This document shows positions 6,319-23,835 of a DNA stretch of 64,000 nt, piece after piece. The stretch covers positions 3,152 to 67,151 of the forward strand of contig JAMPXK010000006.1 in NCBI GenBank assembly GCA_023701245.1, in the 5' to 3' direction. The notes below the pieces were generated by a model. That model was not told the origin of the DNA. It did not search any database and was given only the letters and a program-made list of their open reading frames with translations. The position numbers were made by a program, and so were the translations under genes. This stretch comes from Elusimicrobiales bacterium. Its GTDB lineage: Bacteria; Elusimicrobiota; Elusimicrobia; Elusimicrobiales; UBA9959. Positions within the stretch are counted from its first letter, which is position 1, and every line of letters begins with the position of its first letter.

Positions 6319-8630
6319 TAAAGCGCCTCGAACTGGAAGATTTCGGCAAGTTCCGCAAAACCTCCCTGGTCTTCGGGCCTTTCACGCTGGTGACCGGCCC
6401 CAACGAGGCAGGCAAGACCACCGTTTTCGACGCGCTCTTCGACGCGCTTTGCGCCGGGTCCAAGCACGAAGGGCGGCCGCTCTGGAAGAACATGGCCGCC
6501 CGTTACGGGGCCATCCGCCGGTCCTCCGTCGTCTGGGAGGACGGTTTCGCTCCGCTGCAATTCGGCGACAACGAGTTCCTTGAGATCTTCGCTATCCGCG
6601 GCGGGGAACTTTCCGTAAAGCACCCCGAGAATAAAGGGGCGTCCTCCTGGGCGGAAGCGGCGGAGAACGCGCTGCTTAATTCCGGGCTCAACCCGGCCCG
6701 GCTGGCCGCCGGTCTCAGGGACAAGGCGGAAAGCGCGCGCAAAGGTTCCATCCAGGCCAGGCTGCACCGTTTGAAAGAGGCCATAACGGACAAGGGGCCC
6801 ATGATAGCGGCGCTCCGGTCGGAGCGCGACGCCGTGCTGGCCGGAGCCCAAACCGCCGCCGGGCTCGCGGCCGAGCGGGAGCGCCGCGCCGCCGCCCTGG
6901 AATTGAAAAATTCCGAACTGGCGCAGTTGGGCGCTAAGGTGGAAGAACTCTCCTCCGCGGCCCGCCTGGCCGCCGCCATAGAGGGCATAAATACGCTGCG
7001 GGACCTGAAGGAAGCCAGGGAGGAGGCGGCCGCCCTGGCGGCCTACGCTTCCAGCGAGCTGCCGGCCTACCGGGCCTTGAAACATACCCAGTCCGAAATG
7101 GAGAAGGCAGAGGCTTCCGCGGCCGCGGCCCTGGCCGAAAAACGCTCCGCGCTCGACGCGGCGCAGAAGGCCGCCGCCGAACTTTCCGCTAAAGCCGGCC
7201 AGCTGCAGCCTCGCGGCGAAATGGCCCTGGTCCTGGCCGACAAACTGGCGGCTTTCGCGGCCGAGCCCGGCAAAGTCACCCGCGTGCTGAATACCCGGCT
7301 CCGTTTCGGCCTCTGGGCGGGCGGCCTGGCGCTTGCGGCGCTGGTGGCGTACTCGGGCGCCGGTGCCGTGGCCTACGCGGCCGCGGCCGCTATCCTGGGC
7401 GCGGCCGGCTGGGCCGGGTTCAAACTCGCTTTTACCCAGACCATGGTTCCCCGCGGTCCGGGTGAGGAAGCCGCTTTCCTGGCCGGCGTGGCCGCCACCT
7501 GGTCCACGGTCTGCGAGGCCCCCCTCCCTAAGCAGGGCGTGGAAGACGCCCGCAACTACCTGGCCCGGGCCAGGGCGGACCAGGAAGCCGCGGCCGAGGC
7601 CGCCGAGGCCAAGGTTTCCGAAGTGGAATTCCTGATAGCTTCGGCCAGTTCGGCGGAGGCCGACCTGGAGGACCGGGCGCGCAGGGCCCGCAAGGCGGCC
7701 GCCGAGGCCGACAAGTGGCTGAAGGCCCGCGCCTGCGCGACCGAGGACGAATACCAGGCGAAGCTGGCCGAGTATAAAGCCCGCGCGGCCCGCTGCGCCG
7801 ATATGGAACAGCGCCTGGCGGTGTTCCTGCGCCGCAACAATTGCTCCGCCGAGAAAGAGCTGAAGGATAAACTGCATACCGAGAAAGAATCCATAGAGCG
7901 GCGCGGGATCGGTCCCGAACAGGCGAACGGGCCCGAACTGGAACGCCTCAAGCACGCGCAGGCCCTGCTGGCGCAGGAAGTCAGGGAACTGGAAGCGGCG
8001 CTCAACAAGGTCGCTTCCGAACTTGAGACGGCCAAGGCCGTTTCCGGGGTGCGCCTCGGCGGCCTGCCGGAAAGAATAAACCTGGCCGAGACGGAACTGG
8101 AAGCGGAGAAGGCGGAACTGGCGGAACTGGAACTGCAGGCGCAGGCCTGCCTGCTCGCCGCCGGGGTTTTCGACCGCCTTGGCGAGAGCTCGCTGCTGGC
8201 TTTCGAGGAACTCGGCAAGGAAGTTTCCTCCGTGCTGCAGGCGGTGCTGCCGGCGGCAAGCGCTGAATTCAGGGTTTTTGAAGCGGCGGGAGCGGCGGTT
8301 ACGGACGCCACCGGCCTGCGCCGGCCCGTGCGGAACCTTTCTTCGGGCACGCGCGACCTTTTTATGCTGGCCGCGCGCCTGGCCATAGCCAGGCGCTCAC
8401 GCCTGGGCCAGGCCGGCCCCGCGCCGGCGCTGCTGCTGCTGGACGAACCTTTTTATACGCTGGACCAGGCGCGGACGCGCCTGGCACTGCTGCTGCTGGC
8501 CGCCTTCCACAAGAACACCGGCTGGCAGATCATAATCCTTACCAAGGACCCTGGCGTCGCCGCCGAAGCCGCCCGCCTGGACGGGGTCAAGGCGACGGAA
8601 GTGGCCCTCGAACCTCCCAAGCCGCTCTAA
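6315..8630 (+). CDS. SMC/Rad50-like AAA ATPase with membrane-spanning apex (YhaN/SbcE-like)
   Basis: Walker A GPNEAGKTT, signature LSSGTRD, Walker B LLLLDEP, and long Ala/Glu-rich coiled coils. Two hydrophobic helices sit mid-protein (LWAGGLALAALVAY...AAGWAGFKLAF) where Rad50 has its hook. Confidence 0.75.
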   Translation: MIKRLELEDFGKFRKTSLVFGPFTLVTGPNEAGKTTVFDALFDALCAGSKHEGRPLWKNMAARYGAIRRSSVVWEDGFAPLQFGDNEFLEIFAIRGGELSVKHPENKGASSWAEAAENALLNSGLNPARLAAGLRDKAESARKGSIQARLHRLKEAITDKGPMIAALRSERDAVLAGAQTAAGLAAERERRAAALELKNSELAQLGAKVEELSSAARLAAAIEGINTLRDLKEAREEAAALAAYASSELPAYRALKHTQSEMEKAEASAAAALAEKRSALDAAQKAAAELSAKAGQLQPRGEMALVLADKLAAFAAEPGKVTRVLNTRLRFGLWAGGLALAALVAYSGAGAVAYAAAAAILGAAGWAGFKLAFTQTMVPRGPGEEAAFLAGVAATWSTVCEAPLPKQGVEDARNYLARARADQEAAAEAAEAKVSEVEFLIASASSAEADLEDRARRARKAAAEADKWLKARACATEDEYQAKLAEYKARAARCADMEQRLAVFLRRNNCSAEKELKDKLHTEKESIERRGIGPEQANGPELERLKHAQALLAQEVRELEAALNKVASELETAKAVSGVRLGGLPERINLAETELEAEKAELAELELQAQACLLAAGVFDRLGESSLLAFEELGKEVSSVLQAVLPAASAEFRVFEAAGAAVTDATGLRRPVRNLSSGTRDLFMLAARLAIARRSRLGQAGPAPALLLLDEPFYTLDQARTRLALLLLAAFHKNTGWQIIILTKDPGVAAEAARLDGVKATEVALEPPKPL

Positions 8631-9877
8631 ACCGCCGCCCGCCGGGCCAGCCGGTAGGCGGCCAGGGCCTCCGGGAACGGCGACAAGACCCGCTCCAGCA
8701 CTCCCTTGCATTCCGAGATCGCGGTGCCGTAATTGGTTATGGGGATCCCGGCCGCCGCGGCCCGGCCCATGCGGTTGAGTATCTCCGCGCGGTTGAGCAT
8801 GCAGCCGCCGCACTGGATGGCCAGCTTGTAATCCCCCAGTCCGCCCGGCAGGTCGTGCCCGGCGAAAGTGTCTATCTTCAACTCCCCCCCGGCGGTTTCC
8901 TTAAGCCAGCGCGGCAGCTTTACTCGGCCGATGTCGTCCTCTATGGCATGGTGGCTGCAGGCTTCCAGGACGGCCACCCGGTCTCCGGGCCGCAGGCCGC
9001 GTATGGCGGCGGCCCCGGCGGCGTAGGCGGACAGGTCCCCTTTAAAACGGGCGAACAGGATGGAAAAAGTGGTGCAGGGCACGCCGGGCGGCGTGTGCTT
9101 GACCATGAAGTCCACCACCTGGGAATCGCAGACCACCAGCGCCGGCGGCTCTTTGAGGGCGTCCAGGGCCCGGAGGTATTCGTGCTCGCGGCAGACCAGC
9201 GGCAGGGCGCCGTGGTCCAGCAGGTCGCGCATGGCCTGGACCTGCGGCAATATTATGCGGCCCTTGGGGGCTTCTTTGTCTATGGGGATGATGAACACCG
9301 CGGTCTGGCCGGGTTTTACCAGGTCTCCCAGTATGACGGCCGGGGCGCCGGCCGGCGGCGCGCCGAGGCGCAGCAGGCGTTCTTTCACGGCGGCCACGGC
9401 GGCCTCACGGCGGGTCTTATCCACGGCGGAGCAGAGGATGGGGGCTATGCCGCGGCCGGCCAGGGCGGCGGAGAGTTCCGGGGCGGGCGCGGCGATATCG
9501 GTCTTGTTGACCAGGACGATAACGGGAATGCGCTTTTCGGCGGCGGCCGCCAGGATCTCCTCTTCGCAGTCGCCCCAGCCGGCGGGTTCGGCTACCAGCA
9601 GGGCCACGTCGGCGCGGTCGAAGATGCGGCGGGCGCGTTCTTTGCGGAGTTCGCCCAGGCGGCTGTTGTCGTCGAGGCCGGCGGTGTCGAGGAAGACCAC
9701 GGGACCGACGGGCAGGAGTTCCATGCTCTTCTCCACCACGTCGGTGGTGGTGCCGGGGACCGGCGAGGTAATGGCTACGTCCTGGCCGGCCAGCATATTG
9801 AGCACGCTGGACTTGCCGACGTTGGTGCGGCCGAAGATGGCGATCTGGAGTCTCATCGATTTAGGCGTGCTGTTCAT
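8627..9877 (-). CDS. hydF: [FeFe] hydrogenase maturase GTPase HydF
   Basis: G1 GRTNVGKSS, G3 DTAG, NKTD. C-terminal EACSHH...QCGGC cluster motif. Start moved to ATG 9877 (MNSTPKS, GGAAAGGA SD); the longer ORF reads through repeat copy B. Confidence 0.88.
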   Translation of the reverse strand: MNSTPKSMRLQIAIFGRTNVGKSSVLNMLAGQDVAITSPVPGTTTDVVEKSMELLPVGPVVFLDTAGLDDNSRLGELRKERARRIFDRADVALLVAEPAGWGDCEEEILAAAAEKRIPVIVLVNKTDIAAPAPELSAALAGRGIAPILCSAVDKTRREAAVAAVKERLLRLGAPPAGAPAVILGDLVKPGQTAVFIIPIDKEAPKGRIILPQVQAMRDLLDHGALPLVCREHEYLRALDALKEPPALVVCDSQVVDFMVKHTPPGVPCTTFSILFARFKGDLSAYAAGAAAIRGLRPGDRVAVLEACSHHAIEDDIGRVKLPRWLKETAGGELKIDTFAGHDLPGGLGDYKLAIQCGGCMLNRAEILNRMGRAAAAGIPITNYGTAISECKGVLERVLSPFPEALAAYRLARRAAV

Positions 9878-9895
9878 AGTAGTCCTTTCCTCGGG

Positions 9896-10023
9896 TCCGG
9901 CGGGGGTATGGGGTCTGAAGGCCCTCTCGGAGGCCGAGGCTTGCGTAAGCGACGAGGCCGAGTGAGGAGCGGCGCGAACGGTGTTCGCGACCGCGTGCCT
10001 GAGGACCCCATACCCCCGCCGGA
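9896..10023. repeat. Type-1 nested-hairpin intergenic element, copy B
   Basis: Perfect 20-bp arms (9896-9915 tccggcgggggtatggggtc / 10004-10023) around the conserved core. Lies between the hydE stop and the hydF start. Confidence 0.9.
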
Positions 10024-10029
10024 ACCCCT

Positions 10030-11022
10030 TTATGCCCGCTTCAAACTGTGGCCGAAACCTTCGGCGCGCTGCCGGCCCAGGGAGGCCAGCATGGCGTCCA
10101 CGCAGCCGGCGCACTGCTCCGGCTGTTCTCCGGTGCAGATCTTGCCGGGGTACAGGCTGTAGTCGGCGCGGTTCTCCATGGGGCTGATGTTGGGCATCAG
10201 CACGTTGGCGCCGCAGCCCAGGGCCTTCTGCCTCCCCCTGGGGTCCAGGGTGCCCATGGCGGTGGTGGCCGGGATATGGGTGTTCTTGGTGACGATGCGG
10301 GTCAGCGCCACCATGCGCAGGGCGGCGTCGAGCGTGCCGCAGTCGGCCCCGGCCATGGGGGTTTCGGGGCTGGCGATGAACGGGCCTATGCCCACCATGT
10401 CCAGGTCCAGCTTCTTGAAGAGGAGGATGTCGTCGGCCATGCTTTCCAGGCTCTGGCCGGGCAGGCCGGCCATTACGCCGGACCCTACCTGGAACCCGGC
10501 ATCCTTGAGGCGCGCCAGACAGGCGAAACGCCTGTCGTAATCCGAGTCCGGCTTGAGCATGCTGAAAAGGCGCCGGTCGGAGGTTTCGAAGCGCAGCAGG
10601 AAACGGTCGGCCCCGGCGGCGCGCAGCAGCCTGTACTCTTCGGCGGAGTACTCCCCTACGGAAAGGGTGATGGCCAGGCCGGTCTCGGTCTTTACTTTTT
10701 CCACTACGGCGGCCAGCTCCCTGGGCCCGTAATGGGGGTCTTCGCCGGACTGCATCACCACGGTTTGGTACTTCAGGCGGACGGCGGTGCGGGCGCAGTC
10801 CAGTATCTGCGCCGGGCTCAGGCGGTAGCGGCGCACTTTGGCGTTGCCGGCCCTTATGCCGCAGTAGTAGCAGCGGCGGCGGCAGTAGTTGGAGAACTCT
10901 ATGAGGCCGCGCAGGTGTACGCCGTCGCCTACCTGCTCGCGGCGCACCTTGTCCGCCAGGGCATAGAGATCCGCCGGATCGCTATCCGGGTTGAGGGCGG
11001 CGATGATCTCATTTTTGTTCAT
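10030..11022 (-). CDS. hydE: [FeFe] hydrogenase maturase HydE (radical SAM)
   Basis: 330-aa ORF. Radical-SAM CRRRCYYCGI (CX3CX2C), BioB-like fold signature, position between hydG and hydF. Confidence 0.88.
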   Translation of the reverse strand: MNKNEIIAALNPDSDPADLYALADKVRREQVGDGVHLRGLIEFSNYCRRRCYYCGIRAGNAKVRRYRLSPAQILDCARTAVRLKYQTVVMQSGEDPHYGPRELAAVVEKVKTETGLAITLSVGEYSAEEYRLLRAAGADRFLLRFETSDRRLFSMLKPDSDYDRRFACLARLKDAGFQVGSGVMAGLPGQSLESMADDILLFKKLDLDMVGIGPFIASPETPMAGADCGTLDAALRMVALTRIVTKNTHIPATTAMGTLDPRGRQKALGCGANVLMPNISPMENRADYSLYPGKICTGEQPEQCAGCVDAMLASLGRQRAEGFGHSLKRA

Positions 11023-11039
11023 ATTTGGCCCGGCCCGGG

Positions 11040-11067
11040 CCCCCCTTCCGCAAAGGGTTCGCGGGGG
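11040..11067. repeat. Partial type-2 element (shares 26 of 27 aligned nt with the 3' part of the 16386-16479 element)
   Basis: cccccc-ttccgcaaagggt-t-cgcggggg here versus ccccccc-ttccgcaaagggt-g-cgcgggg at about 16439-16466. Lies in the 70-nt hydG-hydE gap. Confidence 0.7.
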
Positions 11068-11092
11068 AGCGCCACTGACAGCCCGCTGTTAT

Positions 11093-12571
11093 TCAGAAGC
11101 ATAGGTCCCGCTCGCCGCCTTCTATCCTTTTGTAGTAGGTTTCCAAAAGCTTCAGGGTCTCCGGAGGGAAATGCGCTCCGCGGTCGCGGATCTCGTTGAT
11201 CTCGCGGCGGATCAGCGCTTCGCCTTTGGCCCTGGTGGCTTCGGAGGCGAAGTCGTCGAGCCATTCGCGGTAGGTGAGCACGGCGTTGAGCTTGCAGAAG
11301 CGGCTTTCATGCCCGCTCTTGAGCAGTTTCATGATGTGGTCGCCGGTGCGGCCGCAGCGGTAGCCGGAGGCGCAGAAGGAGGTGATGTGGCCCAGGTCGG
11401 CCAGCTCGCCTATCACCTCGTCGAGGGAGCGGGTGTCGCCCAGGATGAACTGCTGTTTCTCGGCTTCCTGCGCGCCGGCGCGCTCGGAGTAGGCGCCTAT
11501 GCCTATGCGGGTGCTGGCGTCGCGCTGGGTGCACATGCCTATGACCTCGCGGATGGTCTCCGGGCGCTCGCGGGCGGTGACTATCATGCCGGCGTAGGGG
11601 ACGGCCAGGCGCAGTACGGCCACCAGCTTCTTGAAATCGGCGTCGGAAACGTTGCGGAGGCTGGCCTCGGGCAGGCTGGTGCCGTCGGCGTTCTCCAGGC
11701 GCGGGAAAGAGATGGTATGCGGGCCGACGCCGAAGCGCGCTTCCAGTTCGCGCGCGTGCGCTACCAGGCCCAGCACTTCGAATTTCCAGTCGGGGTTGAG
11801 GCCGAAGAGGGCGCCCAGGGCCACGTCGTCTATGCCGGCGGCGAAGGCCCGGTGCATGACGTAGAGGCGCCAGCGGTAGTCGGCTTTGGGGGTGCCGCCG
11901 GGATGAAGTCTGGCGTAGAGCTCCCGGTCGTAGGTTTCCTGGAAGACCTGGTAGGTGCCGAGGCCGGCGGCCTTGAGCAGCTTCAGGTCCTCGACGTTCA
12001 TGGGGGCGGCGTTGACGTTGACGCGGCGTATCTGGCCGAAGCCCTTGCGGGTGGGCACTTTGACGGCGTAGATGGTCTTCATGGCCTCGGCTATGTACTG
12101 CGCGCCGGTGGCGGGATGTTCGCCGGTGACGAAGATGAGGCGCTTATGGCCTATGCGCCCGGCGAGGGCTTCGGCCTCGGACCGGATCTCTTCCATGGAG
12201 AGTTTGCGGCGCACGGCCCCGGCGTTGCCGGTGCGGAAGCCGCAGTAGAGGCAGTTGTTGACGCAGAAGTTGGAGGCGTAGAGCGGGGCGAAGGTGATGA
12301 CGCGGTTGTCGTAGACCTTGCGCTTGACATCGCGGGCGGCCTGGTAGATCTCTTCGAGCAGGCCGGGGTCGGTGACGGCCAGGAGCGCCGCGGCGTCTTC
12401 GGGCGGGAGGGCCTCGGAGACGGCGAGCGAACGGGCGAGGATCTCGCGGACGCGGTCGGCCGAAGGGGCCGGGGCGGCGAGCGCCGCTTTCAGCGCTTTA
12501 TCGTCTATGAAGTCTTTGCCGTCTTTGAGGTAGTCTGCGTAGGTGTCTGCGTTAACGGTCACGGTTTGCAT
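11093..12571 (-). CDS. hydG: [FeFe] hydrogenase maturase HydG (radical SAM tyrosine lyase)
   Basis: Radical-SAM CVNNCLYCGF, ThiH-like body, C-terminal Cys triad. Start moved to ATG 12571 (MQTVTVN, GGAGA SD); the longer ORF reads into repeat element F. Confidence 0.88.
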   Translation of the reverse strand: MQTVTVNADTYADYLKDGKDFIDDKALKAALAAPAPSADRVREILARSLAVSEALPPEDAAALLAVTDPGLLEEIYQAARDVKRKVYDNRVITFAPLYASNFCVNNCLYCGFRTGNAGAVRRKLSMEEIRSEAEALAGRIGHKRLIFVTGEHPATGAQYIAEAMKTIYAVKVPTRKGFGQIRRVNVNAAPMNVEDLKLLKAAGLGTYQVFQETYDRELYARLHPGGTPKADYRWRLYVMHRAFAAGIDDVALGALFGLNPDWKFEVLGLVAHARELEARFGVGPHTISFPRLENADGTSLPEASLRNVSDADFKKLVAVLRLAVPYAGMIVTARERPETIREVIGMCTQRDASTRIGIGAYSERAGAQEAEKQQFILGDTRSLDEVIGELADLGHITSFCASGYRCGRTGDHIMKLLKSGHESRFCKLNAVLTYREWLDDFASEATRAKGEALIRREINEIRDRGAHFPPETLKLLETYYKRIEGGERDLCF

Positions 12572-12597
12572 AAGGTCTCCTTGGTTCGGGGCCGCCA

Positions 12598-12698
12598 GGG
12601 TGTTACCCTGGGCCCCACACCCGGGGAACCGTTGCGCGGTTCCCCCGTCCCTTACGGGACGGGTCCCCCTCCCCAAGTGGGGCGTGCGGGTAACACCC
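12598..12698. repeat. Type-2 nested-hairpin intergenic element (copy F)
   Basis: Outer stems GGGTGTTACCC/GGGTAACACCC and GCCCCAC/GTGGGGC enclose hairpins GGGGAACC[gttgcgc]GGTTCCCC and CGTCCC[ttac]GGGACG. Confidence 0.85.
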
Positions 12699-12720
12699 CG
12701 CCGTCCCCTCCAAACAGCGC

Positions 12721-13896
12721 CTAGTGCACGGCTTCGGTTGCGACCGGCACCGGCGCGTCCTTGAGCGTCAGCTCGAAGGAGGTCCCTTCACCGTACTTGG
12801 ACTGCACTTTTACGTCGCCGCCGTAAAGCTTTACCACTTTCTTGAGTATGGACAGGCCGAGGCCGCTGCCGTCGATGTTGCGGGTGTGCTCGTTCTTCAT
12901 GCGCACGAATTCCCCGAACAGTTTGGCGAGCTCCTGCTCCGTCATGCCTATGCCGGTGTCCGAGCAGCGTATGGCTACGGCGCCGTCCTGGCGGGCCAGT
13001 TCGAGGACCGCCCGGCCGCCTTCGCGGTTGTACTTGACGGCGTTGGTCAGCAGGTTGGACAGGACCATGTCCACTTCGCCCGGGTCGGCCGTCATCAGCA
13101 GCTGCGCCGGGGCTTTGAGCTCCACCGTGACTTTTTTGGCTTCGGCCAGGGCGGCGATGTTCTCCAGTATGAGCCCGGCGGTCTTTACCAGGTCCACCTG
13201 TTCTATGGCGCGCCGTTTTTTGCCGGATTCCAGGCGGGTAAGGTCCAGCAGGTCCATGACGAGTTTTCTCATGCCGCCTATGCGGGTGACGCTGCGGTCC
13301 ACCATGGCGTCGTAGGCGGCCAGCTCGGGGCCTTTCAGGCGCTCTTTCATGAGGTGCATGTAGCCTTCCACCGCGGCCAGCGGGCTCTTGAGCTCGTGCG
13401 CGAGGACCGAGATGAATTCGAAACGCACCTGGCGCTTCTCGTCCTCCAGCTTTTTGGCCTTGCGCTGCAGGTAGACGCTGCGCGCGGCCTTGGAGATGGT
13501 GGCGCGGAGTTCTTCCGGAGTAAAGGGCTTGGCCAGGAAGTCGAAAGCCCCGCGCTTGGTGGCGGTGACCGCCACTTCCAGCGAGGCGAAGGCCGTTATC
13601 ATGATGGTCAGGAAATCCCCCGCCCCCGGGGCGGCTGCCAGCACGTCTATGCCGGTCATGTCCGGCAGTTTATAGTCCAGGAGCAGGATGTCCGGGCTCT
13701 TGGCTTTCAGCGCGGCCAGGGCTTCGTCGCCGGTGGAGGCGCTGCGCACGGCGAAGGTGACGGTCTCGCTGAAGTCGGGCAGGGGCACGCTGAAGCCTTC
13801 CAGGGAGCGTTCCGCCCCCGCGCGCATGCCGGCCTCGTCGTCGACGATGAGTACGTCCAGCTGGTGGACGGGCAGGGGGTCAGGCATGACGCTCAC
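12721..13896 (-). CDS. Hybrid response-regulator receiver / histidine kinase (REC-HisKA-HATPase_c)
   Basis: N-terminal REC (VLIVDDE...LLLDYKLPDMTG), H-box SVLAHELKSPL, and N/G boxes (LTNAVKYN, DTGIGM, GSGLGLS). No transmembrane or DNA-binding region. Confidence 0.85.
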   Translation of the reverse strand: MSVMPDPLPVHQLDVLIVDDEAGMRAGAERSLEGFSVPLPDFSETVTFAVRSASTGDEALAALKAKSPDILLLDYKLPDMTGIDVLAAAPGAGDFLTIMITAFASLEVAVTATKRGAFDFLAKPFTPEELRATISKAARSVYLQRKAKKLEDEKRQVRFEFISVLAHELKSPLAAVEGYMHLMKERLKGPELAAYDAMVDRSVTRIGGMRKLVMDLLDLTRLESGKKRRAIEQVDLVKTAGLILENIAALAEAKKVTVELKAPAQLLMTADPGEVDMVLSNLLTNAVKYNREGGRAVLELARQDGAVAIRCSDTGIGMTEQELAKLFGEFVRMKNEHTRNIDGSGLGLSILKKVVKLYGGDVKVQSKYGEGTSFELTLKDAPVPVATEAVH

Positions 13897-14290
13897 CCGC
13901 GCCCATAAGGCGCTTAAGTTCGCTCTTGAGCTGCTCGAAGCGCAGTTCCTTGTGGATTATGGCGTCGGCCTTTATCCAGGTCTTGGGGTCATGGGCCTTG
14001 TCGAAGTAGAAGCCGGTCTCCTTGGTGACCGAGGTCACGATGACCACCGGGATACTGGGGTCCATCTTCTTTATCTTGTGGCTCAGCACGAAGCCGGAAT
14101 CGGGGTTCTCCATCATCAGGTCCAGGACGGCGGCCTTGAAATTGCCGGGCCGGATGAGAGGCTCGGCCTCTTTCTGGGTGGAGGCGCTGACCACTTCGTA
14201 GTCTTCGCTTTCGAGGTAGATCTTCATCTGTTCCATCATATCCGGGTCGTCTTCCACTACCAGGATCTTTATTTTGTTCTTGTCGGTCAT
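13880..14290 (-). CDS. Single-domain response regulator (REC only)
   Basis: 136-aa ORF with ILVVEDD and AAVLDLMM receiver motifs and no output domain. Overlaps the downstream REC-HK gene by 17 nt. Confidence 0.85.
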   Translation of the reverse strand: MTDKNKIKILVVEDDPDMMEQMKIYLESEDYEVVSASTQKEAEPLIRPGNFKAAVLDLMMENPDSGFVLSHKIKKMDPSIPVVIVTSVTKETGFYFDKAHDPKTWIKADAIIHKELRFEQLKSELKRLMGAGERHA

Positions 14291-14314
14291 AGTATTCTCC
14301 TGTCGCCGCTTAGA

Positions 14315-16348
14315 TCATTTGCCCGCGGTCTCCGCTTTCATCTTGATCGCCCCGGCGTCGCGCGCCACGCGGGGCAGTTTTACCGTAAAGGTGGTGCCCG
14401 TCGGGCCCTTGGCCGGGTCGGAGTTGCTCTCTACCGCGATGCTGCCGCGGTGCACTTTGATGATGCCGTAAGAGACCGCCAGCCCCAGGCCGGTCCCCTT
14501 GCCTATCTGCTTGGTGGTGAAGAAAGGCTCGAAGATCTTCTTGGCATTCTCCGGCTTTATGCCGCAGCCGGTGTCCGAAACGCTGAAGCAGACGCTTTCG
14601 CGCTCGGGGAAGGTGCGGATGGTGAGCGCGCCGGCGCCGCCCATGGCTTCCAGGGCGTTGGTCACCAGGTTGGTAAGCACCTGGATTATCTGGTCGGGGT
14701 CCATCTCGGCCTGCAGGTCCTCGCCGGAGCGGTCCACGGTCAGCTTCAGCGTGGCCGGGACCGACGCCGTCTTGAAATAGTTGTCGATGAGGCGTACCAG
14801 GCTGGTCTGGCGGAAGAACGGCTTGTTCTTGCGGGCGAAGTTGAGCAGCCCGCCCACGATCTTCTTGCAACGGTCGGCCTGCTCGGTTATCATCTTGGCG
14901 TCGGCGAAGACGCGGGTGTCCTTCTGGCACTGTTCGGCCAGCAGGTGGGCGTAGAGCAGCACCACGCCGAGCGGGTTGTTGAGCTCATGGGCCACTCCGG
15001 CGGCCAGCTGGCCCATGCTGGCGAGCTTTTCCGACTGCATCAGGGCCTGCTTGGTCTTGGCCAGCTGGTTGTAGGAGACCGTCAGTTCGTCGGCGGTGGT
15101 CTTGAGCCGGTCTATGGTGTAGGGGAGGCACATTTCGCTTTCGGCTATGCCGCGGATGATGGCCACGGCGTGCTCCACGCAGGTGGGGTAGCCGCAGGCG
15201 CCGCAGTTCAGTTCGTCCTCCGGCCTGGTCTTGCCCATCTTGGCCAGGACGGCCTTGAGCTCCTCGCCGGCCGGCAGTTTCATGCGCCGGTCCTCGGCTT
15301 CGAAGGAGGCGCCGTAGTTCAGGCCGCGGAAGCGGCGCACGCTCTCTTCCCAGTCGTTGAGGCGGATGCTGAAATAGCTTTTGCGGGCGTAGCGGCGCAG
15401 GGCGGCCTCGCGCGCGTGCTTGGAGGACTTTACGCTGATGCCGGGGCCCATGATGCAGCCGTTGCAGCAGAGCAGGTCTATGAAATCGGCGTCGATGTCT
15501 CCGTGCTCCATGTTCTTGAGCACTTCCGGGAAGTTCTCCAGCCCTTCCGAAGAGAGGAAGCGGCCGCTCAGCAGGTCCTCTTCGAGTTCGGCGGAGTTGA
15601 GCAGGCCGCCGCCCATGGGGTAGAGCACGCCCTTGGCGGGATGCGGCGGGTCGAACTGGGCGTCCAGGGCGCTGTTGCGGTCCACGCCGGCGTCCTTGAG
15701 GATGGTGCGCAGCTCCACGAAGGTTATGGATTCCGCTATGTCGGCCAGGTTGCGGGCGGTCTCTTCCTTCTTGGCCACGCACGGCCCGATGAAGACCACT
15801 TTTACTTCGGGACCGTACATGTCGTGTATGACCCGGGCCTCGGCCACCATGGGGGAGACTATGGGCGCGAGGCTGCCCACCAGGGCCGGGTGGTATTTTT
15901 CCACGAAGGAGACCACTGCGGGGCAGGCGGTGCTGATGAATTTTTTGCCGGGGTTCTCGTTGATGAGCTTGCGGTACTGCAGGGAGACCATGTCCGCGCC
16001 GAAGGCCACTTCGCAGACATGTTTGAAGCCGAGGGCCTTTAACATGCCGGCGAACCGCAGGGGGTCTATCCCGCCGAATTCAACGGGGAAACTTGGGGCC
16101 AGGGCGGCGGCGACGGGCGCGCCGCTCTTGAGGAGGGCTTTTACGGCGCGGATGGAGTCCAGGGTCTCTTTGGCGCCGCGGCTGCACATGAGCACGCAGT
16201 TGGCGCAGCCTATGCAGCGCTCCTTTATGACCTCGGCCTGGCCGCCGGAGATGCGGATGGCCTTGGCGGGGCAGCCGCGCACGCAGGTATAGCACGCCTT
16301 GCAGCGTTCTTTGATGGTCCTTACTAGTGGCTCGCTATCGGGTGTCAT
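14315..16348 (-). CDS. Sensory [FeFe]-hydrogenase-like protein fused to a histidine kinase
   Basis: Contains a 2x[4Fe-4S] ferredoxin motif. The H-cluster-domain motifs are altered: STACP, GPCVAKKEE, LLCCNGCIMGPG. A CX2CX4CX16C motif (CGACGYPTC...C) follows, then H-box VAHELNNPL and HATPase_c. Start set to ATG 16348 (MTPDSEP). Confidence 0.85.
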   Translation of the reverse strand: MTPDSEPLVRTIKERCKACYTCVRGCPAKAIRISGGQAEVIKERCIGCANCVLMCSRGAKETLDSIRAVKALLKSGAPVAAALAPSFPVEFGGIDPLRFAGMLKALGFKHVCEVAFGADMVSLQYRKLINENPGKKFISTACPAVVSFVEKYHPALVGSLAPIVSPMVAEARVIHDMYGPEVKVVFIGPCVAKKEETARNLADIAESITFVELRTILKDAGVDRNSALDAQFDPPHPAKGVLYPMGGGLLNSAELEEDLLSGRFLSSEGLENFPEVLKNMEHGDIDADFIDLLCCNGCIMGPGISVKSSKHAREAALRRYARKSYFSIRLNDWEESVRRFRGLNYGASFEAEDRRMKLPAGEELKAVLAKMGKTRPEDELNCGACGYPTCVEHAVAIIRGIAESEMCLPYTIDRLKTTADELTVSYNQLAKTKQALMQSEKLASMGQLAAGVAHELNNPLGVVLLYAHLLAEQCQKDTRVFADAKMITEQADRCKKIVGGLLNFARKNKPFFRQTSLVRLIDNYFKTASVPATLKLTVDRSGEDLQAEMDPDQIIQVLTNLVTNALEAMGGAGALTIRTFPERESVCFSVSDTGCGIKPENAKKIFEPFFTTKQIGKGTGLGLAVSYGIIKVHRGSIAVESNSDPAKGPTGTTFTVKLPRVARDAGAIKMKAETAGK

Positions 16349-16385
16349 AATCGTTGTCTGACTTAAGTCCTGAGCTATTAGTGGC

Positions 16386-16479
16386 GCCCGGGATATTGCC
16401 CCACGCACCCTGGAAGATGGAAACCCTTGCGTCGGTTTCCCCCCCTTCCGCAAAGGGTGCGCGGGGCAATATCCCGGGC
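16386..16479. repeat. Type-2 nested-hairpin intergenic element (copy D)
   Basis: 25-bp arms with one mismatch (16386-16410 / 16455-16479) enclose GGAAACC[cttgcgtc]GGTTTCC and CCCTT[ccgca]AAGGG hairpins. Lies between the hydA stop and the sensor-kinase start. Confidence 0.88.
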
Positions 16480-16492
16480 ACCCTTCTGCTGT

Positions 16493-18217
16493 CTACGTTA
16501 GGTCCGCCGCCTTGCGCCTGGCGTACTTAGTGTGCAGGAGGTGGTGGCTCTTCTCGCCGAGGGGCTTGCCGAGGAAGTCCTTGTAGAGGGCCTGCACGGC
16601 CTTGTTGGCGTGCGAGGTGCGGATCTTCTCGGAGGCGTCGATATTGTACAGGGCGCGCATGCGCTCGGCTACGGCGGCCTTGTTGCGGGCGAAGGGCTGG
16701 CCGCCGCCGTTGATGCAGCCGCCGGGGCAGGTCATGATCTCTATGAAGTGGAGGTCCTTCCTGCCGTTCTTGATCTCTTCCAGCAGTTTGCGGGCGTTGC
16801 CCAGGCCGCTGACGGCCGCTACCCCGGCTTCCAGGGCGCCGATCTTGAGGCGGGCTTCCTTGATGCCGTTCTGGCCGCGCACGGCTTCCACCTTGAGGGT
16901 GCCCAGTTCCTTGCCGGTGAGCAGGTAATGGGCGGTGCGCAGGGCGGCTTCCATGACGCCGCCGGAGGCGCCGAAGATCTTGCCGGCGGTGCTGCGGTCC
17001 CCGAAGGGCATATCCGGCTCTTCGGGCTGCAGGGTCTTAAGGTCTATGCCGTAAATGCGCAGCAGCTGGGCCAGTTCGCGCGTGGTCACCACCGCGTCGA
17101 TGTCGGGGGTGCCGTCGCGGCCCATCTCGGGGCGGGTCACTTCGAATTTCTTGGCGGTGCAGGGCATGACCGAGACGCTGTACATCCTGGCCGGGTCGAG
17201 CCCCTGCTTTTTGGCGTAGTAGGTCTTGATCATGGCTCCCAGCATCTGCTGCGGGCTCTTGCAGGTGGAGAGGTTGGGCAGCAGTTCGGGATAGAAGGTC
17301 TCCACGAACTTTATCCACCCGGGCGAGCAGGAGGTGAACATGGGCAGCGGGCCGCCGGTCTTTATGCGGTGCGCCAGTTCGCTGGCCTCCTCCATGATGG
17401 TCAGGTCGGCCGCGAAGGAGGTGTCGAAGACGGCCTTGAAGCCCATCTTGCGGAAAGCCGCGGTCATGACGCCGTTGACGTCGGTGCCGGCGGGCAGGCC
17501 GAACTCCTCGGCGAGGGACACGGAGATGGACGGGGCGTGCTGCACCACCACGTGCAGTTTCTTGTCGGAGAGGGCTTCCATGACCGCCTGGATGTCGCTC
17601 TTCTCCATCAGGGCGCCGGTGGGGCAGACGTTGATGCACTGCCCGCAGTTGACGCAGGAGGAGACGTTGAGGCTGGAGTCGAAAGCGCAGCCGATGGAGG
17701 TGTCCGAGCCGCGCTTTACGAAGTCTATGCAGGAGACGCCCTGCACCTCCTCGCAGACGCGCACGCACTTGCCGCAGAGAATGCACTTGTCGGGGTCGCG
17801 GGAGATGGAGGGGCTGGAAATATCCAGGGGCTTCTTCTTCTTGGCCACGGGGAAGCGGCGGCCGGTCACGCCGTAGTCGCGGCTGAGGCGGTTAAGCTCG
17901 CAGGTGGGCTGCTTGGCGCAGTAGAGGCAGTCGTCGGGATGAGAACCCAGCAGCAGTTCCACCACGGTCTTGCGGGCGTTTATGACGCGCGGGCTGTTGG
18001 TGAGGATCTTCATCCCCTCGGCCGCCGGGAAAGAGCAGCTGGGCAGGAGGTTGCCCTGGCCTTCCGCTTCTACCACGCAGATGCGGCAGGCGCCGGAGGG
18101 CAGCATGCCTTCCATGTGGCAGAGGGTGGGCACATGCACGCCTTCGCGGCGCAGCACGGTGAGCAGGGTTTCCCCCGCCTGGGCTTCTACGGTCTTTCCG
18201 TTCACGGTGAGTTTCAT
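16493..18217 (-). CDS. hydA: [FeFe] hydrogenase catalytic subunit (HydA/HndD type, multi-cluster N-terminus)
   Basis: N-terminal 2Fe-2S, HX3CX2CX5C and 2x[4Fe-4S] motifs. H-cluster motifs MPCTAKKFE and EIMTCPGGCINGGGQP are canonical, but motif 1 reads TSCSPGW. Confidence 0.88.
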   Translation of the reverse strand: MKLTVNGKTVEAQAGETLLTVLRREGVHVPTLCHMEGMLPSGACRICVVEAEGQGNLLPSCSFPAAEGMKILTNSPRVINARKTVVELLLGSHPDDCLYCAKQPTCELNRLSRDYGVTGRRFPVAKKKKPLDISSPSISRDPDKCILCGKCVRVCEEVQGVSCIDFVKRGSDTSIGCAFDSSLNVSSCVNCGQCINVCPTGALMEKSDIQAVMEALSDKKLHVVVQHAPSISVSLAEEFGLPAGTDVNGVMTAAFRKMGFKAVFDTSFAADLTIMEEASELAHRIKTGGPLPMFTSCSPGWIKFVETFYPELLPNLSTCKSPQQMLGAMIKTYYAKKQGLDPARMYSVSVMPCTAKKFEVTRPEMGRDGTPDIDAVVTTRELAQLLRIYGIDLKTLQPEEPDMPFGDRSTAGKIFGASGGVMEAALRTAHYLLTGKELGTLKVEAVRGQNGIKEARLKIGALEAGVAAVSGLGNARKLLEEIKNGRKDLHFIEIMTCPGGCINGGGQPFARNKAAVAERMRALYNIDASEKIRTSHANKAVQALYKDFLGKPLGEKSHHLLHTKYARRKAADLT

Positions 18218-18227
18218 GGTGGTATCC

Positions 18228-20189
18228 TCAAGCGGCGCTGACGGCCTTGAATTTGCAGACGGTCCTGCAGGAACCGCAGGAAATGCACTTCTCGGCTATG
18301 ATGTAGTGGGGCACTTTGGGCTTGCCCACTATGGCCTGCGTGGGGCAGCCTTTCATGCAGAGCGTGCAGCCTTTGCACTTTTCCGCGTCTATGGAGAATT
18401 CCAGCATCTCGGTGCAGGCGCCGGCGGGGCACTTGCGCTCGAAGATGTGGGCTTCGTATTCGTCGCGGAACCAGCGCAGGGTGCTGAGCACCGGGTTGGG
18501 GGCGCTCTGCCCCAGGCCGCACAGGCTGGTCTCGCGGATGACCTGGCTCAAGTCCTCCAGGTTCATGATGCCTGAGAAGCGGGCCAGGGCGTCGGCGTCC
18601 TTTTCGCCGCGGCGGTGGCGGGTGATGGCTTTCAGGATCTCCAGCATGCGCAGCGTGCCTTCGCGGCAGGGAATGCACTTGCCGCAGCTCTCGCGCTTTA
18701 TGAAGTCCATGAAGTACTTGGCCACGTCCACCATGCAGGTTGTCTCGTCCATGACCACGAGGCCGCCGGACCCCATCATGGCGCCCACGGTCTTGAGGGA
18801 CTCGTAGTCCACCTGGATGGTCATGTGGCTCTGGGGGATGCAGCCGCCCGACGGGCCGCCTATCTGCACGGCCTTGAACCCCAGGCCGTTCTCTATGCCG
18901 CCGCCTATGTCGAAGACGATCTCTTTGAGCGTGGTGCCCATCGGGATCTCCACCAGACCGGTGCGGTTGACCTTGCCGGAGAGGGCGAAGACCTTGGTGC
19001 CTTTGGACCCCTTGGTGCCGATGGCGGCGAAGGCCGCCGGGCCCTGCGAAATTATCTCGGGGACATTGGCGAAGGTCTCCACGTTGTTGATGACGGTGGG
19101 CTTGCCGAACAGCCCCTTTACCGCCGGGTACGGCGGGCGCGGCTTGGGCATGCCCCGCCGGCCTTCTATGCTGTTCATCAGCGCGGTTTCCTCTCCGCAG
19201 ACGAAGGCGCCCGCGCCCATCTTTATGATGACGTCCAGGTCGAAGCCGCTGCCGTAGATGTTCTCTCCCAGCAGGCCGTAGGCCTTGGCGTCCGCTATGG
19301 CTTTTTTCAGGTTCTTGATGGCCAGCGGGTACTCCGCGCGGATATAGATGTACGCCTTGGAGGCGTGGATGGCGTAGGCGCCGATGGCGATGCCTTCCAG
19401 CACGCGGTGCGGGTCGCCCTCTATGACGGAGCGGTCCATGAAGGCGCCGGGGTCCCCCTCGTCGGCGTTGCAGATGATGTATTTCTGGTCGGCGTCGGAG
19501 GAAAGGGCTATCTTCCATTTCTTGCCGGTCGGGAAACCGCCGCCGCCGCGGCCGCGCAGGCCGCTGGCCTCTATCACGTCGCAGGCCTGGATCGGCGTCA
19601 TGGTGTGGATCACCTTCAGGAAAGCCCCGTAGCCGCCTCGGGCGATATGTTCCTGTATGGAGAGCGGGTCCACTATGCCCACGTGCTTGAGCACGAAGCG
19701 CAGCTGTTTGGCGAAAAAGGGATGGTCGCTGAGCAGCGGGACTTTGGGCCACTTCTTGCCCCCGTCCTCGAATTGGCCGAGCAGGTGCTCCTTGAGAGGG
19801 GCCCTGTCCTTGAAGACGGAATCCAGGAGGGCCGGGGTTATGTCGCCGGTGGCGGCCTGGAAGCCTACCCTCGCGTGGCCCGGCAGCTGTACGTCCAGCA
19901 GGGGCTCGGCGGCGCAGAGGCCGATGCAGCCCACCTCCAGGATATCAGCTTCCAGCTTGTTGTCCTTCAGGTATTTCCTGGCCGCTTCCAGGGTCTTTGC
20001 GGCGCCGGCGGCCAGGCCGCAGGTGCCGGCTCCCACGTAGATTATGGCGCGCTCGGCGCTCTCGCGGCGCAGAGCCGCGGCCTTTTGGGCGTAATCCTCC
20101 GAGCCGAAGGCGCGGGTGAGAAAAGCCTTGCGGGCGGAGGCCGGGATCCCGGCGAGATTGTTGTCTATTAAACCGTTATTTTGCGGCAT
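18228..20189 (-). CDS. hydB: NuoF-like flavoprotein subunit of bifurcating-type hydrogenase (HydB/HndC)
   Basis: 653 aa. GLRGRGGGGFPTGKKW (FMN/NADH site), SCGKCIPCREG (N3-type cluster), C-terminal 2x[4Fe-4S] (CKGCTLCMKGCP, CISCGSCRTVC), N-terminal thioredoxin-like Cys pattern. Confidence 0.88.
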   Translation of the reverse strand: MPQNNGLIDNNLAGIPASARKAFLTRAFGSEDYAQKAAALRRESAERAIIYVGAGTCGLAAGAAKTLEAARKYLKDNKLEADILEVGCIGLCAAEPLLDVQLPGHARVGFQAATGDITPALLDSVFKDRAPLKEHLLGQFEDGGKKWPKVPLLSDHPFFAKQLRFVLKHVGIVDPLSIQEHIARGGYGAFLKVIHTMTPIQACDVIEASGLRGRGGGGFPTGKKWKIALSSDADQKYIICNADEGDPGAFMDRSVIEGDPHRVLEGIAIGAYAIHASKAYIYIRAEYPLAIKNLKKAIADAKAYGLLGENIYGSGFDLDVIIKMGAGAFVCGEETALMNSIEGRRGMPKPRPPYPAVKGLFGKPTVINNVETFANVPEIISQGPAAFAAIGTKGSKGTKVFALSGKVNRTGLVEIPMGTTLKEIVFDIGGGIENGLGFKAVQIGGPSGGCIPQSHMTIQVDYESLKTVGAMMGSGGLVVMDETTCMVDVAKYFMDFIKRESCGKCIPCREGTLRMLEILKAITRHRRGEKDADALARFSGIMNLEDLSQVIRETSLCGLGQSAPNPVLSTLRWFRDEYEAHIFERKCPAGACTEMLEFSIDAEKCKGCTLCMKGCPTQAIVGKPKVPHYIIAEKCISCGSCRTVCKFKAVSAA

Positions 20190-20661
20190 TTGAGTTCTCC
20201 GTTTTCCTGATGTCGTCCACTAGTTTGCGGAGTTTGTCGGGGGTGATCTTGGCGTGGAACTCCCCGTTAAGGCTGATGACCGGGGCCAGGCCGCAGGCGC
20301 CTATGCAGGCCACCACTTCTATGCTGAAAAGCCCGTCGCGGGTGGTGTCCCCCGCTTTAATGCCCAGGACCTCTTCGCACATCTTGAGCACGGCCGCCGA
20401 GCCCTTTACGTGGCAGGCGGTGCCGCGGCAGATCATGATGTGGTACCTGCCCACCGGTTTGAACCTGAACTGGTTGTAGAACGTGGCCACCCCGTAAACC
20501 TTGCTGGCGGGGATATTGAGGTGTTTGGCCACCTTCAGCGCGGCGGGCTTGGAGATGTAGCCGTCCGCGGCCTGGACGTCCTGCAGGATCGGTATCAGCT
20601 TGTCCCTCTTGGCGAAGCTGTAGTTTTCCAGGACCTTGTCCACTTTGCTCGGGGCGCTCAT
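20176..20661 (-). CDS. hydC: NuoE-like [2Fe-2S] subunit (HydC/HndA)
   Basis: 161 aa. Thioredoxin-like ferredoxin pattern CRGTACH...ACIGACGLAP. Overlaps hydB by 14 nt. Confidence 0.88.
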   Translation of the reverse strand: MSAPSKVDKVLENYSFAKRDKLIPILQDVQAADGYISKPAALKVAKHLNIPASKVYGVATFYNQFRFKPVGRYHIMICRGTACHVKGSAAVLKMCEEVLGIKAGDTTRDGLFSIEVVACIGACGLAPVISLNGEFHAKITPDKLRKLVDDIRKTENSNAAK

Positions 20662-20665
20662 GGTG

Positions 20666-21298
20666 TTACTCCTTAAGTTTGCTCTTGCGGGCGAAATACG
20701 CCACTTTTTCTATCGAAAGCGTGATGTCCAGCTGTTCCAGGAAAACGCCCGGCGGCAGTTTCAGCTGTACCGGCGCGAAGTTCACAATGCCGCGGACCCC
20801 GGAACGCACCAGGATGTCTGCCGCCTCCTGCGCGGAGGCGGCGGGCACCGTTATGATGCCTACCGCCGCCTTTTCGCGTGAGACGGTCTTTTCCAGCTGG
20901 CCGATATGGTGCACCTGGCAGCCCGAGTAGACCCGGTCGGTCTTTTCCGGGTCCTGGTCGAAAGCCGCCACTATGCTGAGGTTGGGCCTGCGCTTGAGGA
21001 AGTAGGAAAGTATGGCCTTTCCGAGGTTGCCCACCCCCACCAGCACCATCTTGGTAAGCGACGCGGATTCCAGGTGCGAGTAGAGCTCGGTCATGAACTC
21101 CTTTATGGGATAGCCCCGCTGCGGGGTCCCCTTGAGCTTGAAGTTCATCAGGTCTCGCCGGACCTGCTCCGGCGAAACCCCCACCGCTGCCGCCAGTTCA
21201 TGCGAGAAGACATGCTCAGAACCCGCCTCCAGGCGGTTGTGGAGGAACTGACAGTAGCGGAAGAACCGCTCTACGGTGCGCTGGGGTATCCTTGTCAT
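20666..21298 (-). CDS. rex: Redox-sensing transcriptional repressor Rex
   Basis: 210 aa. N-terminal winged helix (IPQRTVERFFRYCQFL) and Rossmann GVGNLG. Typical Rex length, immediately upstream of hydCBA. Confidence 0.88.
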   Translation of the reverse strand: MTRIPQRTVERFFRYCQFLHNRLEAGSEHVFSHELAAAVGVSPEQVRRDLMNFKLKGTPQRGYPIKEFMTELYSHLESASLTKMVLVGVGNLGKAILSYFLKRRPNLSIVAAFDQDPEKTDRVYSGCQVHHIGQLEKTVSREKAAVGIITVPAASAQEAADILVRSGVRGIVNFAPVQLKLPPGVFLEQLDITLSIEKVAYFARKSKLKE

Positions 21299-21306
21299 AT
21301 CGCTCC

Positions 21307-21723: not shown

Positions 21724-21752
21724 ACTTTCCTCCGGGTCTTAGCGTTTGAAGT

Positions 21753-21806: not shown

Positions 21807-21814
21807 ACAGAAAT

Positions 21815-22040: not shown

Positions 22041-22064
22041 TCTATTCTGGCGGTCTGGAGGGCG

Positions 22065-23834: not shown

Positions 23835-23835
23835 A

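Follow-up and report, generated by a model that had tools for sequence, protein, structure and literature searches.

H2 turnover is slow in the sensory-type [FeFe] hydrogenases TmHydS and TamHydS, both of which bind an H-cluster (PMC8163306, PMC10055695), and H2 sensing by the group C and D enzymes is still termed 'putative' in papers from 2022 to 2026, in part because neither protein has a measurable signalling output. Here we describe HydS-HK, a 677-residue protein in which a sensory-type hydrogenase module is fused to a histidine kinase (HK), encoded in a 64-kb stretch of contig JAMPXK010000006.1 from an Elusimicrobiales bacterium (referred to below as the window). The gene is a member of a known, biochemically uncharacterized family, and the fusion itself is not new, having been described before for exactly this lineage.

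Group C hydrogenases with a kinase domain have been reported beside an A3 hydrogenase, with Rex nearby, in lineage V groundwater Elusimicrobia (bioRxiv 10.1101/765248), next to an A3 hydrogenase in Ca. Lernaella (PMC9324843), and in Hydrogenedentota, whose His-kinase-bearing form is termed 'sub-type V BfuT' and for which Caldithrix abyssi DSM 13497 represents the same cluster organization and cultured Bacteroidota carry a second bfuT copy (PMC11406978); the C. abyssi operon is Cabys_3675-3679 (PMC5317091). In the reported cases the same fusion occupies the same place directly after hydCBA, with Rex and a Rex box at the operon head; nothing essential separates these proteins from that of the window, which belongs to the same family, and metagenome-assembled genomes (MAGs) of Hydrogenedentota and Calditrichota are among the 80 loci compared below. 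The papers do not describe the conserved partners, a receiver protein (REC) and a receiver–kinase hybrid (REC-HK), and report no biochemistry; 'response regulator' and 'Rex' have 0 occurrences each in PMC11406978. Major reviews still picture group C as PAS-fused and leave kinase fusions unmentioned. HydDB, in which C1 to C3 are defined only as putative classes, returns C3 for kinase-domain hydrogenases adjoining A3 hydrogenases (PMC11406978, PMC9324843), so that the 'histidine-kinase-linked group' in which an initial annotation of the window had placed the protein, and which corresponds to HydDB C1, is a doubtful label. The same annotation had held that the signalling output of this group has not been worked out, and the literature searched, to 2026, indeed contains no experimental (biochemical or genetic) work on the kinase output. 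What is new here is the conservation of the REC and REC-HK partners across phyla, the lack of a conserved DNA-binding output, the conserved Rex box, and a helix leading from the cluster to the DHp domain in the structural model.

Comparison with TmHydS and TamHydS was made through published residue identities and with a PAS-type HydS of Elusimicrobia as proxy, not by direct alignment. TmHydS shares with HydS-HK the N-terminal 2x[4Fe-4S] module, Ala at CpI position C299 (A131; A141 here), Gly at M353 (G177, PMC10055695; G188 here) and the Cx2Cx4Cx16C cluster at the C-terminus; its genomic setting, too, ties it to a bifurcating hydrogenase. It differs in ending in a PAS domain, whereas in HydS-HK a DHp-CA kinase directly follows the cluster, in having Ser267 at the M497 position where HydS-HK has Leu293, and in the spacing of the P3 motif, which is CxxC in HydS-HK. 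TamHydS, like HydS-HK, lacks a PAS domain and a proton pathway and has the C-terminal cluster and Leu at M497, but its histidine-kinase-like ATPase is encoded next door as a separate protein; moreover group D, to which the TamHydS type belongs, has Ser or Thr at M353 (PMC8163306) where the fused family has an invariant Gly. The Ala and Gly substitutions and the accessory Cys motif had been put forward initially as traits of sensory HydS enzymes, which is borne out by the match to A131 and G177 of TmHydS and by the occurrence of CX2CX4CX16C in both M2e and M2f enzymes (PMC8163306).

Three further systems resemble parts of the locus. HoxBC-HoxJ-HoxA of Cupriavidus necator ([NiFe], HydDB group 2b) is alike in concept, running from a slow hydrogenase through a histidine kinase to hydrogenase expression, but it has an unrelated metal site and fold, and its sensor is not joined to its kinase in one protein. 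HoxA, the output of the Hox system, is an NtrC-type DNA-binding regulator, whereas no HoxA-like regulator is encoded at the HydS-HK locus. ThkA-TrrA of T. maritima (3a0r) likewise combines a soluble kinase with a single-domain receiver without an output domain, TrrA being the partner of ThkA. In the multi-kinase relay of Leptospira LvrA phosphorylates LvrB, in which a receiver precedes the kinase as it does in REC-HK. NCBIfam describes LvrB as a 'hybrid histidine kinase/response regulator', and it matches the kinase core of HydS-HK. Both ThkA-TrrA and LvrA/LvrB differ from the present system in having unrelated input domains and no hydrogenase.

Domain architecture and structural model

Pfam and the open reading frames (ORFs) agree with the architecture proposed initially for the 677-aa fusion, as follows.

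14315-16348, minus strand: hydS-HK, 677-aa fusion of a sensory-type [FeFe] hydrogenase with a histidine kinase (Pfam, motifs, alignments, AlphaFold2 (AF2) model)
16172-16318, minus strand: 2x[4Fe-4S] ferredoxin module, residues 11-59, 8 Cys (Pfam Fer4 families)
15443-16117, minus strand: H-domain, residues 78-302 (Pfam PF02906 Fe_hyd_lg_C, 5.1e-43)
15122-15211, minus strand: C-terminal CX2CX4CX16C [4Fe-4S] motif, residues 380-409 (PF04060 FeS)
14825-15016, minus strand: HisKA/DHp domain, residues 445-508, with phospho-acceptor His454 (Pfam HisKA, 5.4e-12)
14369-14701, minus strand: HATPase_c catalytic domain, residues 550-660 (Pfam, 1.9e-25)

Every motif that had been quoted for the protein is present: string search places STACP at residue 139, GPCVAKKEE at 188 and LLCCNGCIMGPG at 292, and the regular expression C..C....C.{16}C has a single match, at C382, C385, C390 and C407. 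In the ferredoxin module Cys 16, 19, 22, 45, 48, 51 and 55 are invariant and Cys26 is found in at least 90% of the sequences (73-sequence alignment A3). Judged by sequence, HydS-HK is a HisKA-class sensor kinase in which H454, N560/N564 and the DxGxG and GxGLGL motifs are kept. An identical 677-aa protein is also encoded on a 22-kb Logan contig, and the closest named relative is a protein of Elusimicrobia bacterium GWC2_63_65 with 92% identity.

The AF2 model (mean pLDDT 85.9) superposes in its N-terminal part on the DdH and CpI [FeFe] hydrogenase structures (TMt 0.63-0.68) and in its C-terminal part on the kinase core of ZraS, whose cytoplasmic domain (9jfj, 1.6e-32) is also the best match of the kinase in the PDB; no solved group C or D enzyme turned up in the PDB searches. 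In the model one unbroken helix, residues 408-473, begins just past the last cluster ligand, Cys407, and bears His454. HydS-HK has no Pfam match to a PAS domain, and in the model this helix leads into the DHp bundle instead. A PAS-type HydS from an Elusimicrobia MAG (locus L004) is 39% identical to residues 1-409 (2e-87), and since the likeness stops exactly at C407-L-P, the kinase occupies the position of the PAS domain in the classical enzymes.

Conservation of the locus and its signalling partners

Below, HK1 denotes the kinase of HydS-HK and HK2 that of REC-HK, while REC1 and REC2 are receivers of 136 and 138 aa. As had been suggested at the outset, a REC-only protein and a REC-HisKA-HATPase protein are encoded directly downstream of the fusion, and Pfam agrees, finding Response_reg only in REC1 and REC2 and Response_reg, HisKA and HATPase_c in REC-HK.

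13880-14290, minus strand: REC1, TrrA-like single-domain receiver, 136 aa (Pfam Response_reg only)
12721-13896, minus strand: REC-HK, receiver-HisKA-HATPase_c hybrid, 388-391 aa (Pfam)
21307-21723, minus strand: REC2, 138-aa single-domain receiver encoded first in the operon (Pfam Response_reg, 1.7e-16)

A pattern scan with one genome per species identified at least 584 species-level genomes with confirmed relatives of the fusion, mostly from uncultured anaerobes. Neighbourhood counts refer to the loci of the best 80 of these relatives, all from MAGs and with about 20 taxon labels, including Elusimicrobiota, Planctomycetota, Hydrogenedentota, Calditrichota, Fermentibacterota, Myxococcota, Acidobacteriota, Bacteroidota, Lentisphaerae, Krumholzibacteriia and Sumerlaeota. 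Six-frame ORFs of the 80 loci were searched with the window proteins, and the denominators 69 and 55 are the numbers of loci with enough sequence on the side concerned. REC-HK lies directly downstream of the fusion in all but one of 69 loci (68/69), and a single-domain REC adjoins it in 58/69, downstream in 54 and directly upstream in 6. On the other side HydA is directly upstream in 50/55 loci and Rex is present in 45/55, while hydE, hydG and hydF commonly follow the module. A Pfam check of a Planctomycetes locus gave the same REC and REC-HK architectures. The gene order, which is found again in 80 independent loci of many phyla, is far beyond chance.

The three REC proteins had been noted to lack any DNA-binding or enzymatic output domain, Rex being the only HTH protein of the module, and both statements stood up to Pfam and to scans of the flanks. 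Within +/-10 kb the 80 loci share no conserved DNA-binding regulator: when unassigned ORFs were clustered no family occurred in more than 10 loci, and a DNA-binding response regulator is therefore not part of the conserved set. The window's remaining two-component genes, too, include no receiver with an output domain. The position of REC2, upstream of rex, recurs elsewhere only in three Elusimicrobia loci (L002, L004 and L005; L001 is the window locus itself).

Several loci depart from the common arrangement. In L022, L034, L035, L041, L046 and L049 the single-domain REC lies between hydA and hydS-HK, not after it, and the HydB of these loci, at about 1085-1110 aa, has a GltD-like Fer4_20 + Pyr_redox_2 extension (Pfam on L046). 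An aspartase/fumarase-class lyase gene (Lyase_1 + FumaraseC_C) stands between hydG and hydF at L055:16570-18006 and in about 8 other loci. Some genomes have a second HydS-like gene at the same locus (L004:523-2232, L058:3349-5199, also L072, L075 and L080). In the Elusimicrobia MAG L004 it is the PAS-type HydS, adjoining another HydA; in Bacteroidales it encodes about 616 aa, is divergently transcribed and comprises Fer4, H-domain, FeS and then a coiled-coil-like tail. The copies in L058, L072, L075 and L080 match the 'two bfuT' clusters of cultured Bacteroidota.

Orthologue alignments show that REC1 keeps the acidic pocket, phospho-Asp, Thr and Lys (76 sequences) and that REC-HK keeps its receiver residues, including the Asp, together with the H-box and the N, G1, F and G2 boxes (69 sequences); for REC2 the receiver residues were judged from the Pfam match and the window sequence. 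The best PDB match of REC1 is T. maritima TrrA (3a0r_B, 3.4e-10), and the closest NCBIfam receivers of REC2 are of the OmpR/PhoB class. HK1 resembles AtoS, ZraS, NtrB and ThkA, ThkA (1.4e-22) being among its closest relatives of solved structure, the REC-HK receiver resembles those of NtrC and LuxO, and HK2 resembles PhoR, WalK and HK853. At putative interface positions HK1 and the REC-HK receiver are both highly conserved, while HK2 and REC1 are both mixed, a pattern of conservation that, together with the class resemblances, is tentatively suggestive of a flow from HK1 to REC-HK and on to REC1 or REC2. The top 19-residue Kyte-Doolittle mean in the four signalling proteins is 1.72; no segment reaches transmembrane level, and all four are accordingly soluble.

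Active site of the H-domain

Residue equivalents in CpI numbering were taken from an alignment (A1) of HydS-HK with the CpI-like group A HydA of the window. The four Cys ligands of the H-cluster, C142, C190, C295 and C298 (CpI C300, C355, C499 and C503), are kept in 80/80 orthologues, K193 and E196 of the P2 motif are invariant (13-sequence alignment A2), and so is the APS motif across the approximately 20 taxon labels. The Cys of the C-terminal cluster are kept in 79 or 80 of the 80 orthologues and His454 in 80/80. By contrast the five proton-pathway residues of group A are all replaced or deleted (C299 to A141, E279 to a gap, E282 to Q124, R286 to L128 and S319 to A161). The relay position is never Cys in the 80 orthologues, being T in 31, S in 31, A in 11, N in 6 and P in 1. 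M353 is replaced by Gly188 and M497 by Leu293, and both substitutions are present in 80/80 orthologues. The P3 motif of the fused family reads L-L-C-C-x-G-C; of its two adjacent Cys the first is found in only 54/80, whereas the second never varies.

Because all five proton-pathway residues are replaced or deleted, the H-domain is not of the group A kind. The proton pathway, Met353 and Met497, all features of group A, are changed together, while the features of sensory HydS-type enzymes are present, namely a 2x[4Fe-4S] module at the N-terminus, an H-domain lacking the relay Cys and a C-terminal Cx2Cx4Cx16C cluster. The Ser or Thr at M353 that marks group D (M2e, TamHydS type) is absent, Gly188 being found in 80/80. 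Alignment had been named at the outset as the means of telling a catalytic from a sensory domain; it places this one outside group A and close enough to the PAS-type HydS (39% over residues 1-409) for us to regard it as putatively of the sensory kind.

Operon, promoter and candidate Rex operator

The gene belongs to a single array on the minus strand, at 8.6-21.8 kb of the window, in the order REC2, rex, hydCBA, hydS-HK, REC1, REC-HK, hydGEF. The genes not listed above are the following.

20666-21298, minus strand: rex, NADH/NAD+-sensing transcriptional repressor (NCBIfam NF003995, 189.5 bits, cutoff 126; Pfam Put_DNA-bind_N + CoA_binding)
20176-20661, minus strand: hydC, NuoE-like 2Fe-2S subunit (Pfam 2Fe-2S_thioredx, 2.7e-51)
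18228-20189, minus strand: hydB, NuoF-like FMN/NAD subunit (Pfam Complex1_51K and NADH_4Fe-4S)
16493-18217, minus strand: hydA, catalytic [FeFe] hydrogenase (group A, trimeric bifurcating type; NCBIfam NF040763, 820 bits, cutoff 765)
11093-12571, minus strand: hydG, H-cluster maturase (phmmer orthologues in many related loci; named from reading the sequence, not by family search)
10030-11022, minus strand: hydE, H-cluster maturase (phmmer orthologues in related loci; named from reading, not by family search)
8627-9877, minus strand: hydF, H-cluster maturase GTPase (phmmer orthologues in related loci; named from reading, not by family search)
21815-21843, minus strand: sigma-70-type promoter TTGACA-17-TATACT at the operon head (11/12 positions, best site in 8000-24000)
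21783-21802, either strand: perfect 20-bp palindrome AACGTTA-N6-TAACGTT, candidate variant Rex operator (only perfect copy in 64 kb)
21741-21760, either strand: second copy of the palindrome with 2 mismatches, between promoter and first gene (64-kb search)
16382-16483, minus strand: very stable, lineage-specific RNA hairpin in the hydA/hydS-HK intergenic region (minimum free energy -91.5 kcal/mol, z -10.2)

Spacing between the genes ranges from -14 to +152 nt, most gaps being short or overlapping; with ATG at 13887 as start, REC-HK overlaps the stop of REC1 by 8 nt. The TTGACA-17-TATACT promoter is the sole strong sigma-70-like site in the 16 kb scanned and lies just downstream of a terminator-like hairpin (22015-22029) that closes the upstream gene. 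A sigma-54 promoter, thinkable for an NtrB-like kinase, gave only chance-level matches and none within the operon. The presence of one strong promoter, the mostly small or overlapping gaps, and a hydA-hydS-HK gap of -8 to about 30 nt in most other lineages make hydS-HK one gene of an operon headed by the promoter and the palindromic candidate operator.

The perfect palindrome stands just past the -10 box, at about +6 to +25 from the inferred transcription start. Sites of this type occur in the 64 kb only here and at 21741-21760, and palindromes are found at the equivalent position in the three Elusimicrobia loci that share the REC2 arrangement (L002, L004, L005). The core GTTAC-TTAA-TTAAC resembles the Rex-box variant GTTAA-N4-TTAAC, and the palindrome is a candidate for a lineage variant of the Rex operator. 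The canonical Rex box TTGTGAA-N4-TTCACAA itself was sought in the window with 0 matches at up to 3 mismatches, and the variant palindrome was taken instead. In 22 loci the canonical box (up to 2 mismatches) does lie 36-140 bp upstream of rex, where about 0.002 would be expected per locus, and the same box has been reported for C. abyssi Cabys_3675-3679 (PMC5317091). A 13-bp perfect palindrome, TAACGGACCGTTA, is present at 21886-21898, upstream of the -35 box, and the recurrence of ACGTTA/TAACG half-sites through the leader suggests an operator array.

The hydA/hydS-HK hairpin is near-perfect over about 45 bp and has no U-tract behind it. An Rfam scan of 8-24 kb gave no significant match, the lone non-significant match, to a miRNA model, falling on this hairpin. 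A role as a conserved regulatory element was ruled out, most orthologous loci having a gap here of only -8 to about 30 nt. The hydS-HK gene has no obvious Shine-Dalgarno sequence, unlike most of its neighbours, and the hairpin might lower or gate expression of the sensor.

HydA of the window matches T. kivui HydA1 (8a6t) at 5e-179. Its P1 motif reads TSCSPGW, with Ser at the CpI cluster-ligand position Cys300; A. woodii HydA1 (7q4v) has an identical P1 reading in the alignment, and a variant of this type has been noted in Melainabacteria (PMC3787301).

Two further sets of two-component genes lie elsewhere in the window. At 46361-48358 (minus strand) lies the gene of a soluble histidine kinase whose N-terminal half matches several PAS families and whose kinase core is the closest window paralogue of that of HydS-HK (7.7e-32); a scan of five flanking ORFs showed no response regulator but a DEAD-box helicase, an M3 peptidase, an FMN reductase-like protein and, for two of them, no Pfam match. 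Upstream of the operon, at about 24.9-28.1 kb (minus strand), a second cluster encodes a HAMP-PAS kinase (26155-28050), a single-domain REC (25694-26137) and a GAF protein, likewise without DNA-binding output.

Discussion

The domain architecture, the conservation of all cofactor and catalytic residues, the place of the gene in the operon, its set of partners and the Rex boxes of the orthologous loci are direct observations. The reading that we favour, with a probability of roughly 0.6, is that HydS-HK works as a sensor kinase in the cytoplasm, with a slow sensory-type [FeFe] hydrogenase as its input module, and is co-transcribed with HydABC, the maturases and Rex. Our inferences on H2 dependence, coupling, phosphotransfer order and target are as follows. 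H2 would be bound and oxidized at an H-cluster without a fast proton pathway, leading to a redox or conformational change of the H-domain and accessory clusters. The change would be relayed through the C-terminal cluster domain, where Cys407 caps the continuous helix into the DHp bundle bearing His454, and would alter autophosphorylation. The phosphoryl group may then pass to REC-HK, whose NtrC-class receiver would gate a second kinase of the PhoR/HK853 class, and possibly also to the TrrA-like single-domain REC. The final output would be exerted by a single-domain receiver through protein–protein contact or by a DNA-binding regulator encoded elsewhere, while Rex would separately couple transcription of the whole operon to NADH/NAD+.

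Several points weigh against this proposal. In work of 2026, TamHydS's C-terminal cluster does not become reduced under 1 atm H2 and its mutation barely affects the enzyme (PMC13104023), so that a simple redox relay through this cluster cannot be assumed and the coupling is possibly conformational. Leu occupies the M497 position of HydS-HK, and in the CpI M497L variant [2Fe]H is not properly integrated; the P3 spacing is CxxC in the fused family, where both group A and the PAS-type protein have CxxxC. A study of Hydrogenedentota found the canonical P1-P3 motifs barely detectable in group C1 hydrogenases with HATPase_C and left sensing open (PMC11406978). For the fused family both the binding of an H-cluster and an effect of H2 on the kinase are putative. 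On the output side, no output domain is conserved at the locus across the 80 loci. Covariation between receiver helix alpha-1 and the DHp domain of either kinase (normalized mutual information, 56 triplets) gave nothing above control columns; the phosphotransfer order, including the two-tier relay suggested at the outset, therefore stays a hypothesis, and no kinase–receiver pairing can be assigned.

The final output step is where the most serious alternative departs from our proposal, with which it is compatible. HydS-HK could serve an ordinary two-component pathway that ends in an orphan DNA-binding response regulator encoded elsewhere, REC1 and REC2 being mere phosphate sinks or modulators. 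Kinases of the classes to which HK1 (AtoS/ZraS/NtrB-like) and HK2 (PhoR/WalK-like) belong normally feed DNA-binding regulators, and the 11 of 69 loci without an adjacent single-domain REC must, at least there, have their target elsewhere. Neither the surroundings of the 80 loci (+/-10 kb) nor the 64-kb window hold such a conserved regulator, however, and the sigma-54 promoter matches do not rise above chance; we consider this ending tentative and somewhat unlikely.

In a second alternative the kinase senses redox state or the ferredoxin pool, not H2, through the reduction state of its N- or C-terminal [4Fe-4S] clusters, set by ferredoxin or HydABC, and the H-domain is a vestigial scaffold. The strict conservation of three accessory clusters is in keeping with this, as are the Leu at M497, the CxxC spacing and the missing proton pathway, which could impair catalysis, and the doubts of the Hydrogenedentota paper about H2 sensing by its group C1 hydrogenases, in which canonical motifs were hard to find. 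A vestigial site would not, however, be expected to keep its four H-cluster Cys, the P2 Lys and Glu and the APS motif invariant, the hydGEF maturases are in the same operon, and the sensory relatives TmHydS and TamHydS bind active H-clusters. We judge a pure redox sensor improbable. Still less probable is an accessory 'T' subunit (BfuT) that docks on HydABC and tunes its activity directly, with kinase and receivers secondary, since the tight coupling to hydA (most lineages have a gap between -8 and about 30 nt), the name BfuT and its treatment as part of the sub-type V BfuABC clusters (PMC11406978) and the lack of a conserved DNA-binding output are set against a complete kinase with intact catalytic residues and two conserved receiver partners, which points to phosphoryl signalling, against the 5/55 loci that have the fusion and REC-HK without HydA directly upstream, and against the solved HydABC complexes 8a6t, 7q4v and 7p5h, which are described in the PDB with HydA, HydB and HydC only.

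Returning to HydS-HK as an H2-responsive kinase, a bolder version, which we hold to be a long shot, would make Rex, HydS-HK, REC and REC-HK an autonomous controller, fed by both H2 and NADH/NAD+, that needs no DNA-binding response regulator, phosphorylated REC acting on the binding of Rex to its operator or on the direction of HydABC (H2 production versus uptake). If this were true, the partial pressure of H2 would feed back on the bifurcating hydrogenase by protein contact in at least 15 phyla.

The finding will not surprise a specialist. In the operon, however, a hydrogenase module is wired directly to a kinase, with two conserved receiver partners, and autophosphorylation and phosphotransfer under H2 versus an inert gas are therefore a direct yes/no assay; of all routes to an answer on H2 sensing by 'sensory' [FeFe] hydrogenases the fused family is the most tractable, and the experiment is within reach in cultured carriers named in the literature, such as Caldithrix abyssi and several Bacteroidota. 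The fused family almost always accompanies a bifurcating hydrogenase and Rex, and the output of HydS-HK probably governs the response of many fermenters to the build-up of H2.

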